Below are positions 53,413-64,000 of a stretch of DNA of 64,000 nt, in pieces. The first letter of the stretch is position 1; each line of letters opens with the position of its first letter. The position numbers and the translations under genes were made by a program. Origin of the DNA: Naegleria gruberi (lineage: Eukaryota); the NCBI GenBank assembly GCA_000004985.1, contig GG738847.1; one strand, 5' to 3'. The notes under the pieces are model-generated. The model did no database searches, was not told the DNA's origin, and saw only the letters and a program-made list of their open reading frames with translations.

Positions 53413-56400
53413 ATGTCTGAAGAGGAAGTGAGAGAAGACCCAACAACTGAATGGTTGTTCGGGAAAGTGATGCACAACATTAAAATCAACAAGACAAAAT
53501 GGAATGAATTCAGAACTAGTGAGGAAACAAGGTAAGTGTAGTATTAGGATTTGGACCTATATGAAAATGATCAGAGTTAAAATACAAAAATTCCTTACAG
53601 TGGAATCAGAAATGATGTTGTTTTTTATTAAGAGCAAAGAAAAAGAAGAAATAATAGTATCTGCGGAACCAGTTATTGGAGGTCATAAAAAAGGAATTGT
53701 GTTTTTGAAACATTCCCCTATCAAAATCACCACAGATAATTATGTAGAATCTCTATTTTATGAGGATGTTTTTGCTGATCCTCTTTTAAATTTACAAAGA
53801 ATTGTGGAAGGAGTTTATCTTCCTCTCCTTCAATCACCAAAGAATCAAAAAGGATGGCCAAATGTAGTGGCTCAAGATTTGATAAGACAATTCCATCGAT
53901 TTACAGGAATGTTAGATTTATTTATTGGACATACTAGAGGATCTGTAGTTTTACCAATGCCACCCGTTGATGAAACAGTGGAAACGGCTTCTCAAGATAG
54001 ATCCCTTGTTCATGCTTTTGAAACTTCAGTAATAGATTGGAGTAAGGAAACAAGGAAAGTAATAGAGTTGGATTCTGATAAAATATTGGATGAATTGGAA
54101 AAGGAAGAAAAATATCAAGGACCTCTTTTTGAAATTGATTTTTGGCAAGCAAAGAAAACAAAATTGACTGATCTTGCTCATCAATTATCAAATGACAGAG
54201 TGAAAATGGTGATTTCAACATTAGAAAAAACTCAAAGTTCATATGTTACCGGATTCAAGAAAATGTTGGATGATTTAAATTTTGCATTGGATGAATCTGA
54301 AACAATTTCCAAATATTTCGAACCTCTAAGAAAGTATTTCCAAGATTTGAATGATTCAACAATATCAGTTTCTGATCTTGGAGAAGTTTTTAAACCAATT
54401 CTACATTTAATTTCATTGATGTGGAGAAAGTGCGAGTATTTCAACACAGGTCATTTATATGTTCTCATAAGAGAGATTTGTAATGATATTGTTACTAGAA
54501 TTTATAATTATATTGAACCATCAGAGCTATGGACTAATCCTATGAAAGTTGTTGCAGAAAAACTTCAAATTTCATTTAATGGATGTGAAGAATTCAAAGT
54601 ATTATTTTTCCAATATAGGGATATTGTAAATAGAACTAATCCTCAAAAAACTTGGAAATTTGAAAGTTCTAAGGTTTTTACTAGGTTGAACTTATTTATC
54701 GAGAGATTACACGATTTAAGAACAATTGCTTTGTATATAGATGATTTCTTATCACTCGATAAATTTGATATTGGTGGTGTGAATGGAGCAGAATTAACTG
54801 GTATGATGTCTCAACTATTTGAAGAATTTGTAGATCAACAACAAAAGATTCAAAACGTTAGTTATGATGTACTTGATTTGAAAGAGGAACAATTTGAGAG
54901 AGATTTTTACAAATTCTGTGATGCTATTAATGACTTTGATAAGAGAATTTGCTTCATGATTAATAAGGCATTACAATTGAATACTGGATTCAAGTTTACT
55001 TTTAAACTTTTAGAAAGCTTTGAGTCTCAAGCAAGAAGAGAAAAAATCAGGCAAGAAATTGAGGGTAAAATTTCCAACATGTTATCGGTATATTCAGAGG
55101 AAATAACAAAAGTGTCAACAATATTTAACAAGAACAAAGAAAATCCTCCTTTATTAGATAACTTCCCAAAGGTTTCTGGAGCTATTGCTTGGTGTTATTC
55201 ACTGAGAGAAAGAGTAACATGGCCATTAGAAAAATTTAAAGAGCAACCTTTTCTAACCACCAGCTCTGAATTACAAGATATCATCCAAAGACATGAGAAA
55301 CTGATGGCTCAGATGAAAAAATATGAGGATGAGATTTTCAATTCTTGGAAGGAGCAGCTTAATGTAAATAGTTTATCCCATCTCAATGATAATATTATTT
55401 CCAGAATGCCAGATAAAAGATTGGTGGTTAACTTTAATCCAGAACTGAGTTTCTGTATTCAAGAAGTAGAACATTTGAAACCTTATGCAAACGCAGTTCC
55501 AGAAGAGGCGATTGCACTCTTTGAAAAAGGGGATATTTACAGAGCTAAAGTCGCAACAATGGATCTTATGGTTCGTCAGTACAACACTGTAATTCAAACA
55601 TTGATAGATGTAGAAAAGCCTCTTTTGGCCGATAGATTAACCACTGTAGATAACATTTTGGTGGAGTCTACTGAAAAATTAACGTGGCAAAGCGATATTG
55701 ATAATTTTATATTACAATCTAGGGAAAATGTGAGAGACATTTACAATAGAACAAACTTCCTTAAAGGGAATGTTAAAACAATCGAAAAAATGGTTGAGAG
55801 CTGGATGACTATTTCTAATTTAATAATTACTGATAACTCTGGTATTGAGGAGATGAAAGAGAAAAAGGCCAGCAAAATATTTGATATGGTTGGATTTTGG
55901 AGACAATCTACTGACTCCAATCCAACTTTCAAAGTCTATTCTCAATGGAAGTCAAAAGTCTCAGCCAATATCAAAAAGTTGAGTGATGTTATTATCCAAA
56001 GTGAAAGAATTGGTCATATTATGGAAAGCAGCCGTCTCAAAATTTGTCCACAAAGCTCATCAGAGGAATGGAATAATTATTGGAGAAATTATGTTCTCTT
56101 TGTAAATAGTATTATTGAAAAGGGAGTATTTAATGCTGTAAGAGAAGGATTGACATTTTTAATTAACTCATTCTCAGGAAAAAATGATATGATTGCTTTG
56201 AACTCCAAAACACTGAGTAATATCTTCATAACTGTCAAACTAGAACTCTATTCTAATGATGCTGTATTCACCCCAAACTTGATTGAGAGTACAAACAGTG
56301 TTCATAATAGTGTAAAAATTTGGGTCAGTAGAGTCATTGGCTTAGCATCCATGGTAAAGAGATTAGATGAAGTTACAACTTTCGAAAAGGTCATCAAAGA

Positions 56401-62400: not shown

Positions 62401-64000
62401 CAACTGTACTCAAATCGATTTCTTCTTCCCTTGGCCAAAAGAAGCCTTATTGAGCGTTGCTGATAAGTTCTTGAAACCTGAAATGCCAATTACTGGAGAA
62501 CACCATCCATCAATTGTAAAAGCAATGGCATTCACTCATGAAAAAGTCAATGAATTTAGCTCTAGATTCCTCAACGAACTTGGTAGATATACCTATACTA
62601 CTCCAAAGAGCTATCTTGAATTCTTGAAACTGTACAAATCTCTTCTTTACAAAAAGAGAGAGCTTATCAAGGGTTTAATTGATAGATTGAGCCAAGGTAT
62701 TCAAAAATTGAGGGATACCACCATGAACGTAACCAAATTACAAAAACAATTGGAAACGCAAGAAAAGGAGGTCAAGGAAAGAGAAATAGCAGCCGATATT
62801 ATCTTGGAGAAAGTTAAAAAGGAAAGAACAGTTGTGGAAGCAGAAAACAAAAAAGCTCTCACAGAAGAAAAATTCGCCCAAGAAATCAACCAACAAGTTG
62901 CTCAACAAACAGCAGAGTGTGAGGGAGAAGTTGAAAAAGCCAAACCAATCCTTGAAAAAGCAGAATTGGCTCTTCAAACTCTTAACAAGACTGAATTGAC
63001 AGAACTTAGGTCCTTCAGAACTCCAAACGTCAATGTACTTCTTGTATTCCAAGCTGTGCTTATTTTACTAAGTACAAAGTCTGGTGTAACAAAAGATTTG
63101 AGTTGGTCTGCAGCTCAGAAGGCTATGGCTCGTGGTTCTGATAAGTTCTTGGCTGTATTGGAAGCATATGATTCCAAGAATATCTATCCTCACATCCTTA
63201 CCGCTATCCAACCGTTCATGGATAATCCTAAATTCACAGGTGAGGAAATCAGAAAACATTCATCAGCTTCTGGAGGTTTATGTGAATGGGTCAGAAACAC
63301 TATTGAATATAATAAGACATTCGTAGCAGTGAAGCCAATGTTTGACAGCTTGGAAAAATCCAAACTTGAAAAGGCAGCAGCAGAAGAAAAATTGGCTAAA
63401 GTAAGAAAAACAGTAGCTAAATTGAATAAGCAGTTAAAGAAGATTGAAGGTGATTATCAAGCAGCAGAAGATGAAAAGAATGCCGCTCTTGACATTGCTA
63501 AAAAGACTCAAGAAAAATTGGACTTGGCTCAACGTTTTGTTCGTGCTTTGTCATCTGAAAATGCTCGTTGGTTGGAGGAAATTCAAAAACTACAAACTCT
63601 TAACAATGTATTAATAGGAGATGTACTTCTTGCGTCTGCCTTTATTTCATATGCTGGTAGTTTTGATATGAGATTTAGAACAGAGCTCACAGAAGCATGG
63701 AAACAAGAAATTATTGGAGAGTTAAAGATTCCAACTTCTGAAAATCTTAATTTGTTAGAAGTTATGACTGATGATGCTGAAATAGCTAAGTGGGGTAATC
63801 AAAAACTTCCATCAGACAAAACAAGTATTGAAAACGGCTGTATTTTATTGAATTGTGAAAGATGGCCTCTGGTTGTAGATCCTCAGCTCCAAGCCATTAC
63901 ATGGATTAAGAACCATTACAAAGATTTAATAATACTGAGATTAGAACAACCAGATATCATTGAAAAAATGGAACGAGCCATTCAAAAAGGCCAAACAGTT
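53413..64000 (+). CDS. axonemal outer-arm dynein heavy chain, 5' partial (continues past window end)
   Basis: ATG at 53413. First intron 53519..53600 (donor GTGAGG, acceptor TTACAG, frame verified). One continuous frame then runs to 64000. AAA1 region [80 protein letters not shown] (P-loop at ~59099). This is the TETTKDL/FNCSDQ axonemal form, not the cytoplasmic TESVKAL form. AAA2 GPAGSGKS (~59942). AAA3 ANAGVGKT (~60914). AAA4 VGVGGSGKQS (~61951). It ends in the post-stalk region ...DPQLQAITWIKNHYKDL...IEKMERAIQKGQTV. Confidence 0.9.

Follow-up and report, generated by a model that had tools for sequence, protein, structure and literature searches.

The stretch of DNA analyzed here, 64,000 nucleotides in length (hereafter, the window), is almost certainly nuclear genomic DNA of Naegleria gruberi, an amoeboflagellate of the Heterolobosea, either strain NEG-M or a source indistinguishable from it at the protein level, and its last part is with the same near-certainty the 5′ four-fifths of an annotated ODA-beta gene. 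On the plus strand, the interval from 53413 to 64000 codes for the N-terminal 3,515 residues of an ODA-beta heavy chain, a member of the axonemal outer-arm dyneins. Publication and annotation of the gene, its family, and the organism date back to the N. gruberi genome project, and a correction of the gene model is the sole new point of this analysis.

We identified the public counterpart of the window dynein as P0001 (EFC49517.1/XP_002682261.1/D2V0F9), the 4,421-aa "axonemal dynein heavy chain beta" of N. gruberi NEG-M. The two were identical over 3,441 aligned residues, save for one splice-junction residue and a gap of 21 aa; the single mismatch is an artefact of how the public model places a splice junction. 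Seven more window proteins, all between 2.3 and 32 kb, were exact N. gruberi matches with consecutive UniProt accessions (D2V0D5 to D2V0E8), covering more than 3,500 residues with zero substitutions: GatA at 2.3 kb, an 852-aa ORF at 3.9 kb, histone H3 at 10 kb, and ORFs at 17, 24.7, 26.2, and 30 kb. The ORF at 859-2271 had its best representatives in N. lovaniensis (69%) and Acrasis kona (30%). In the NCBI taxonomy, N. gruberi belongs to Discoba; Heterolobosea. The original prediction had described H3, UEV/MMS2, mL54, GatA, and Pus in the window, and all of them were found by exact match, exon reconstruction, or Pfam/TIGR profiles. The neighbors of the dynein gene are as follows.

2271..3800, minus strand: mitochondrial GatA, two exons with an intron at 3250-3300; the spliced product is exactly EFC49699.1/XP_002682443.1/D2V0D5
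10141..10554, minus strand: histone H3, 138 aa, exact match to EFC49702/XP_002669596/D2V0D9
16245..16858, minus strand: UEV/MMS2, three exons (16849-16858, 16572-16711, and 16245-16511) rebuilt from sequence
49476..50609, minus strand: TruA-family tRNA pseudouridine synthase (Pus), PF01416 (E=9e-34) and TIGR00071 (146.7 bits against a cut-off of 142.85)
51681..52082, minus strand: RNase H2 subunit C, start codon uncertain, PF08615 (E=1.8e-16)
52411..52857, minus strand: mitochondrial ribosomal protein mL54, PF08561 (E=2e-12)

GatA scored 497 bits against TIGR00132, above the 481-bit cut-off. The TruA-type Pus has an N-terminal extension of about 60 aa and is predicted to be targeted to mitochondria. 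The mL54 gene and the dynein gene are divergently oriented, with a 555-bp spacer between them, and mL54 is 61% identical to the N. fowleri gene at the equivalent position; RNase H2C shows 58% identity with its syntenic counterpart in N. fowleri. Together with a COMMD1-like gene, the six genes listed above are ordinary housekeeping genes that lie near the dynein gene but are not functionally linked to it.

In N. fowleri, the dynein ortholog (FDP41_003836, P0002) is 77-78% identical over its full length and has the same N-terminus. There, too, mL54, RNase H2C, and dynein stand in this order, whereas gene order farther upstream differs. In a neighbor-joining (NJ) tree, the window dynein paired with the N. 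fowleri protein in 100/100 bootstraps. P0003, a 4,501-aa dynein assembled from public reads, was 52% identical and grouped with Naegleria, also in 100/100; speculatively, it may come from an unsequenced heterolobosean.

The identity of the window with N. gruberi was established at the protein level alone, and exact look-ups of Pus, mL54, the COMMD1-like protein, UEV, an ABC transporter, and others returned no match. Both observations would fit another Naegleria isolate or haplotype very near NEG-M instead of the reference assembly itself. We consider such a source unlikely, since no substitution occurs in some 3,441 residues of the dynein or in the more than 3,500 residues of the seven other proteins, and the miss in the dynein look-up is explained by a difference in gene models. 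The other missed look-ups, which taken alone could suggest an unsequenced organism, probably have the same cause, as the dynein homology search and the exact matches indicate.

The dynein gene consists of a short exon 1, a 43-nt intron, and a single 10.4-kb exon that extends past the window end.

53413..53531, plus strand: dynein beta heavy chain exon 1 (ATG at 53413; 39 codons plus 2 nt; MSEEEVREDPTTEWLFGKVMHNIKINKTKWNEFRTSEET)
53532..53574, plus strand: intron 1, 43 nt, GTAAGT...CAG (GT..AG), by direct sequence reading
53575..64000, plus strand: dynein exon 2, stop-free, cut within AAA5 by the window end
56001..56063, plus strand: 63-nt in-frame segment within SERIGHIMESSRLKICPQSSSE, spliced out by the public model; GT..AG ends, no stop codon

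From 53471 to the window end, a single frame of 3,510 codons runs without stops. Position 53413, which had been given as the start in the original prediction, is the true ATG and opens the short first exon. Exon 1 lies in a frame other than that of the long ORF, and its peptide aligns to the N-terminus of P0002. Homology predicts a splice at 53532-53574: upon removal of intron 1, exon 1 comes into frame with RVKIQKFLTVESEM, matching the N. fowleri protein. About 975 C-terminal residues, comprising the rest of AAA5, AAA6, and the C-terminal domain, lie past the window end.

By contrast, the public model (D2V0F9/XP_002682261.1) starts at an internal Met (window position 53615), and thereby omits exon 1 together with 13 codons at the beginning of exon 2. 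The 21 codons (63 nt) at 56001-56063 are dropped from it as well. Both missing parts encode residues conserved in N. fowleri, and the peptide of the 63-nt segment is conserved in P0003 as well; this segment is most likely coding and not an intron. Judged from these sequence comparisons, the true start of N. gruberi ODA-beta very probably lies 53 residues upstream of that in the public model, specified by the 119-nt exon 1 and joined across the 43-nt intron, with the 21 internal residues retained and the 63-nt intron spurious. A corrected D2V0F9 model, with the N-terminus and the 21 residues restored, would be useful for modeling or tagging the Naegleria outer arm.

We then analyzed the domains of the encoded protein. 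Pfam detected DHC_N1, DHC_N2, AAA_6 (AAA1), AAA_5, AAA_7, AAA_8, the microtubule (MT) stalk, and the start of AAA_9. PF08385, PF08393, PF12774, PF07728, PF12775, PF12780, and PF12781 appeared in canonical order, each above its curated cut-off.

54008..55708, plus strand: tail (DHC_N1), PF08385 (E=1.4e-146)
57371..58585, plus strand: linker (DHC_N2), PF08393 (E=4e-121)
58985..59965, plus strand: AAA1, main hydrolytic site, PF12774 (E=1.1e-148)
59099-59122, 59168-59191, and 59255-59269, plus strand: AAA1 motifs, namely Walker A GPAGTGKT, VFNCSDQM, and Walker B DEFNR, respectively
59930..62644, plus strand: AAA2 to AAA4 with lids (Pfam AAA_5, Dynein_AAA_lid, AAA_7, AAA_lid_1, AAA_8)
59942, 60923, and 61961, plus strand: P-loops of AAA2 to AAA4, namely GPAGSGKS, NAGVGKT, and GVGGSGKQ, respectively
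62681..63697, plus strand: coiled-coil stalk and microtubule-binding domain, PF12777 (residues 3071-3409, E=3.7e-69)
63788..64000, plus strand: start of AAA5, cut by the window end, PF12781 (profile positions 2-73 of 222)

The DHC_N1 tail region of dynein heavy chains holds the dimerization, intermediate-chain, and cargo contacts. Walker A P-loops are present in AAA1 to AAA4, and AAA1 has its Walker B motif. The stalk sits between AAA4 and AAA5, as expected of the dynein heavy chain superfamily. The window ends 71 residues into AAA5; P0001, the public protein identical to it, has PF03028, PF18198, and PF18199. The sole feature that could suggest a decaying pseudogene or an assembly chimera is truncation of the gene by the window edge. 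Against decay stand the 3,515-codon coding frame without stops and the catalytic motifs, all of which are intact. The dynein and the seven exactly matching proteins, spread from 2 to 64 kb, all share a single N. gruberi contig of 941,567 bp as the longest on record, and therefore the window is not chimeric. In addition, local gene order is common to N. fowleri, and GC content is uniform, at 29-37%. A pseudogene or a chimera accordingly has a negligible probability.

The assignment to the ODA-beta family was examined by ranking solved structures. The best matches were human DNAH9 (2766 bits), DNAH17 (2752), and the Chlamydomonas outer-arm beta chain (2514). DNAH5 and Chlamydomonas gamma, which are of the ODA-alpha type, scored about 1440-1490 bits, I1 chains about 1650-1800 bits, and single-headed inner arms about 1200-1500 bits. 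Among solved structures, chains other than those of ODA-beta and its paralogs did not exceed 1800 bits. Cytoplasmic dynein 1 showed only 24-27% identity in the homology search. The NJ tree, a simple method applied to 3,236 columns with I1 alpha/beta as the other class and no ODA-alpha sequences, separated the ODA-beta clade from I1 alpha/beta in 100/100 bootstraps. Since domain order is common to all dynein heavy chains, Pfam alone cannot tell the classes apart, and an ODA-alpha chain (DNAH5 or Chlamydomonas gamma type), an inner-arm I1 chain, or a cytoplasmic or IFT dynein would present the same architecture. Given the lead of the ODA-beta structures (2500-2770 bits versus at most 1800), the bootstrap separation from I1, and the low identity to cytoplasmic dynein 1, we regard membership of any such class as very improbable. 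In the published classification, which distinguishes ODA-alpha from ODA-beta, the latter comprises DNAH9/11/17 and Chlamydomonas alpha/beta (PMC4415241). These results agree with the original prediction in its call of an outer-arm axonemal dynein heavy chain, for which the Pfam architecture and structure ranking both speak, and the AAA1 motif that it had quoted was found from 59099 onward, along with VFNCSDQM.

The host named by the original prediction, a zoosporic fungus (chytrid or Cryptomycota-like, within Holomycota), was wrong: eight window proteins, the dynein and seven others, are identical to those of N. gruberi NEG-M. A phylogenetic placement outside Holomycota and a chimeric contig had both been named as possible refutations. 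The NJ tree of dyneins put the window protein outside the opisthokonts, namely outside an animal+chytrid clade and outside a fungal clade, both 100%-supported, and the same N. gruberi contig across the window genes does not support a chimera. The nearest relatives of the window proteins are Naegleria species and Acrasis, not fungi. A fungal origin could draw on the chytrids, which are the next-best named dynein matches after Naegleria (40-46%), but their rank stems from the large number of chytrid genomes in the database and from how slowly this motor evolves. It could also draw on the N-terminal motifs of H3 and UEV, which occur in yeast, too, but both proteins score higher against plant or animal entries than against yeast entries. 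The probability of a fungal host is therefore vanishingly small. Other parts of the original prediction held: the host is not an amoebozoan, a ciliate, or a gut fungus, and the flagellum and genome-bearing mitochondrion that it had proposed are compatible with the known biology of N. gruberi.

Two sequence marks had been taken as fungal. H3 has KSA..PSTGG and HRYKPG, residues that had been called fungal-specific, but they are not diagnostic: the sequence is that of N. gruberi H3, its best scores were against H3.3/H3.2/H3.1-type entries, its 90% cluster is common to Willaertia and N. lovaniensis, and no yeast-named H3 was present among the best 60 matches. The UEV start had been described as yeast-like; it reads only once the first intron is spliced out, and the 138-aa product scored higher against human UBE2V2 (145 bits) than against yeast Mms2 (138 bits). 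Conserved motifs in H3, UEV, or the dynein P-loop thus cannot assign a contig to fungi. In the solved-structure ranking, human DNAH9 also outscored putative trypanosomatid chains; the Naegleria proteins here are closer to opisthokont orthologs than to these putative trypanosomatid chains.

Other hosts were also considered. Trichomonas has AT-rich, intron-poor DNA, but is not known to have genes for mitochondrial translation, and no axonemal dynein is known from Dictyostelium; both were rejected. For a ciliate, in-frame TAA/TAG codons would be expected under the standard code, and none were seen. An intron-poor, AT-rich excavate amoeboflagellate had not been weighed in the original prediction. 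With long ORFs free of introns and a GC content of about 33%, a heterolobosean should have been considered. The biological weight of the finding is small, as few motors are understood as well as outer-arm dyneins, and its value is mainly methodological.

Solved structures of orthologous outer-arm dyneins suggest that the protein, of about 4,490 residues, is a microtubule motor driven by ATP and directed to the minus end. Through the N-terminal tail (DHC_N1), it would be joined to the other outer-arm heavy chain or chains and to the intermediate and light chains, and the tail would also anchor the complex to a doublet's A-tubule. The linker (DHC_N2) would swing as ATP is hydrolyzed at AAA1, with nucleotide bound at AAA2 to AAA4, while the stalk tip would bind cyclically to the B-tubule of the neighboring doublet. 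The resulting sliding between doublets would bend the flagellum. Naegleria makes its flagellar apparatus de novo when amoebae differentiate into flagellates. N. gruberi is reported to have four outer-arm dynein genes, three of which are differentiation-specific, with the exception not named (bioRxiv 10.1101/2024.01.08.573270). As with its axonemal position and motor mechanism, differentiation-specific expression of the present gene is suggested by its orthologs.

The window protein has the order of tail, linker, AAA1-4, and stalk in common with human DNAH9 (8j07) and DNAH17 (9fqr), Chlamydomonas beta (7kzm_B), and Tetrahymena beta (7k58_B). With DNAH9 the alignment runs end to end (query 69-3509 against DNAH9 95-3507), and animal ODA-beta members in general show about 38-40% identity to the window dynein. 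The placement of these orthologs by cryo-EM points to an outer-arm location for the Naegleria protein. The chytrid beta chains, among them those of Batrachochytrium (BDEG_21780), Gorgonomyces, and Spizellomyces, are orthologous to the window dynein and comparable in length, but are only 39-46% identical and form their own 100%-supported fungal clade within the opisthokonts. The outer arms of Naegleria have been reported to be three-headed in appearance, whereas those of opisthokonts are two-headed (PMC4415241).

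Translation with the standard code revealed a 3,510-codon frame without stops, which begins at 53471 and stays open up to the window end. Its Pfam domains followed the complete order of a dynein heavy chain as far as the window reaches, with scores far over the curated cut-offs, and AAA2, AAA3 and AAA4 each had a P-loop; about 975 C-terminal residues lie beyond the window end. The ATG at 53413, named as the start by the original prediction, is in another frame than the long ORF and proved correct as the ATG of a short first exon. The joined N-terminus aligns with that of the N. 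fowleri orthologue.

Features of the dynein gene, all on the plus strand
from 53413, 119 nt: exon 1, encoding MSEEEVREDPTTEWLFGKVMHNIKINKTKWNEFRTSEET
53532-53574, 43 nt: intron 1, GTAAGT...CAG, linking exon 1 to the long frame (homology-based)
long frame, Pfam: DHC_N1 (tail)
then DHC_N2 (linker)
then AAA_6 (AAA1)
then AAA_5 (AAA2 and lid)
then AAA_7 (AAA3)
then AAA_8 (AAA4)
then MT stalk
then AAA_9 (AAA5, first 71 residues only)
from 59099: AAA1 P-loop motif quoted in the original prediction (motif scan)
59168-59191: VFNCSDQM (motif scan)
59255-59269: Walker B, DEFNR (motif scan)

When all PDB chains were searched, the best match was human DNAH9 (2766 bits, end-to-end), with DNAH17 at 2752 bits and Chlamydomonas outer-arm beta at 2514 bits. 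DNAH9 also scored above two chains named 'Dynein heavy chain, putative' (about 2230-2250 bits), which we take to be trypanosomatid; these were followed by Tetrahymena outer-arm beta and Chlamydomonas alpha. Scores were about 1650-1800 bits for I1 chains, about 1200-1500 bits for single-headed inner-arm chains, and only about 1440-1490 bits for the ODA-alpha type (DNAH5, Chlamydomonas gamma). In a simple NJ tree of 3,236 aligned columns, from which ODA-alpha sequences were left out, a clade of the window dynein, DNAH9/11-like and chytrid sequences was split from I1 alpha/beta with 100/100 bootstraps. On the basis of this ranking and clade, we assign the window protein by sequence to the ODA-beta family of heavy chains, in Inaba's sense (PMC4415241), upholding the predicted outer-arm axonemal dynein.

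In a homology search, the dynein was 99% identical to 'axonemal dynein heavy chain beta [Naegleria gruberi]' (EFC49517.1 / XP_002682261.1 / D2V0F9, strain NEG-M). Next came the N. fowleri orthologue at 78%; P0003, an ODA-beta dynein of 4,501 aa from assembled public reads (Logan), at 52%; and chytrids at only 40-46%. Because the 3,441 residues aligned with the N. gruberi protein were all identical except for one splice-junction residue and a 21-residue gap, the value of 99% instead of full identity is, on this alignment, a gene-model artefact. P0003 is probably derived from an unsequenced heterolobosean.

Chimerism of the contig was assessed by exact look-ups of proteins from across the window.

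Exact matches to N. gruberi proteins
2271-3800: GatA, spliced by us; EFC49699 / D2V0D5
3869-6424: 852-aa ORF; EFC49700 / D2V0D6
10141-10554, minus strand: histone H3; EFC49702 / D2V0D9
17100-18947: ORF; D2V0E2
24670-25809: ORF; D2V0E5
26204-27118: ORF; D2V0E6
30119-32245, plus strand: ORF; D2V0E8

The spread of these matches speaks against a chimeric contig. The best representatives of the fast-evolving ORF 859-2271, among 1.8 billion proteins, were from N. lovaniensis (69%) and Acrasis kona (30%), and GC content was uniform along the window (29-37%). Compared at the protein level, the window is not chimeric and derives from the nuclear genome of N. gruberi, which belongs to Discoba; Heterolobosea (NCBI taxonomy). 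Window positions 51681-64000 and positions 8311-23562 of the N. fowleri locus L001 share the arrangement mL54(-), RNase H2 subunit C(-), dynein beta(+); the two genes directly upstream of dynein keep their positions and orientations and are 61% (mL54) and 58% (RNase H2 subunit C) identical to their counterparts. Farther upstream, gene content differs, with COMMD1-like and TruA genes in N. gruberi and a 419-aa gene without annotation, CBFD_NFYB_HMF and profilin in N. fowleri. The shared local order supports a Naegleria origin of the window.

The neighbouring genes had been called correctly: mL54 has a PF08561 match, TIGR00132 (497 bits vs a 481-bit cut-off) identifies the amidase as a true GatA, Pus is of the TruA type (PF01416, with TIGR00071 over its cut-off), and H3 and UEV/MMS2 are likewise right, the UEV N-terminal motif being readable only with removal of an intron after the 10th nt of the CDS. 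A flagellated host with a mitochondrial translation system agrees with the known biology of N. gruberi, but the fungal identity attached to it fails. In the NJ tree, the window dynein has the N. fowleri protein as its sister (100/100), P0003 joins the two next (100/100), and an opisthokont and a fungal clade, each 100/100, both exclude it. The protein is placed outside Holomycota, an outcome that the original prediction had itself named as refuting a zoosporic fungus. That chytrids rank high behind Naegleria is due to the large number of chytrid genomes in the database and to the slow evolution of this motor. The H3 residues described as fungal-specific belong to a protein identical to N. gruberi H3, whose 90% cluster also holds Willaertia magna and N. 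lovaniensis sequences; its best PDB matches were of H3.3/H3.2/H3.1 type, with no yeast-named H3 among the best 60. The UEV scored higher against human UBE2V2 (145 bits) than against yeast Mms2 (138 bits). The argument that core genes resemble those of yeast and hence indicate a fungus is ruled out by H3, the UEV scores and the dynein tree.

Several other features were observed in the window. H3 has 138 aa, owing to a two-residue insertion in the tail; the N. lovaniensis and W. magna H3s of its cluster are also 138 aa long. For N. gruberi, GenBank lists this same protein with three or more accessions (EFC36852, EFC42318, EFC49702), and a tRNA-Ala gene lies about 640 bp upstream on the opposite strand. 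The two tRNA-Ala genes are identical in sequence, with unrelated flanks. Two COMM-domain genes occur within the 64 kb.

Further features
1-633, plus: COMM-domain gene, cut by the window start
11194-11267, plus: tRNA-Ala(AGC)
24314-24454, minus: U4 spliceosomal snRNA (Rfam, 47.1 bits vs gathering score 46)
25977-26050, plus: tRNA-Ala(AGC)
36708-36788, plus: tRNA-Ser(GCT)
39752-44896, minus: ABC-2/ABCG-type transporter, 1,715-codon open frame
50896-51522, minus: COMMD1-like gene (COMMD1_N and COMM)

In the transporter, ABC_tran and membrane domains are confined to the last ~640 residues, and the N-terminal ~1,080 residues had no Pfam match. Long ORFs at 45689-48055 (+), 6583-7848 (-) and 13018-16215 (+) contain many poly-N, poly-Q and poly-S tracts and had no confident Pfam domain. 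The 709-aa protein at 30119-32245 matches PF09820 ('Predicted AAA-ATPase', E=1e-41), a family known mainly from prokaryotes. Its 90% cluster holds two further full-length N. gruberi paralogues (EFC49725, EFC49683) as well as a partial copy from elsewhere. The protein seems to belong to a gene family that was amplified recently and may have a lateral or mobile origin.

Judging by its orthologues and by what is established for outer-arm dyneins, the tail would join the heavy chain to its partner heavy chain(s) and to intermediate and light chains, and would fix the complex on the A-tubule. ATP turnover at AAA1, tuned by nucleotide at AAA2 to AAA4, would drive the linker swing, and the microtubule-binding domain of the stalk would cycle on the adjacent B-tubule, leading to doublet sliding and bending. 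Naegleria outer arms have a three-headed look in electron micrographs (PMC4415241). For N. gruberi, a recent survey counts six dynein genes of the inner arm and four of the outer arm; of these four, three are expressed specifically in amoeba-to-flagellate differentiation (bioRxiv 10.1101/2024.01.08.573270).

The window dynein is a published, annotated gene of a published genome. Its public model, XP_002682261.1, appears to be wrong at two places, 53413-53614 and 56001-56063. The public protein begins at an internal Met (window 53615), leaving out exon 1 as well as 13 codons at the start of exon 2, and at 56001-56063 the model splices out 63 in-frame nt that have GT..AG ends and no stop; the 21 residues they encode are conserved in N. 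fowleri and P0003. Both homology-based splice corrections together would give a protein of about 4,490 residues, and this corrected gene model of the N. gruberi dynein is the sole addition to known facts.
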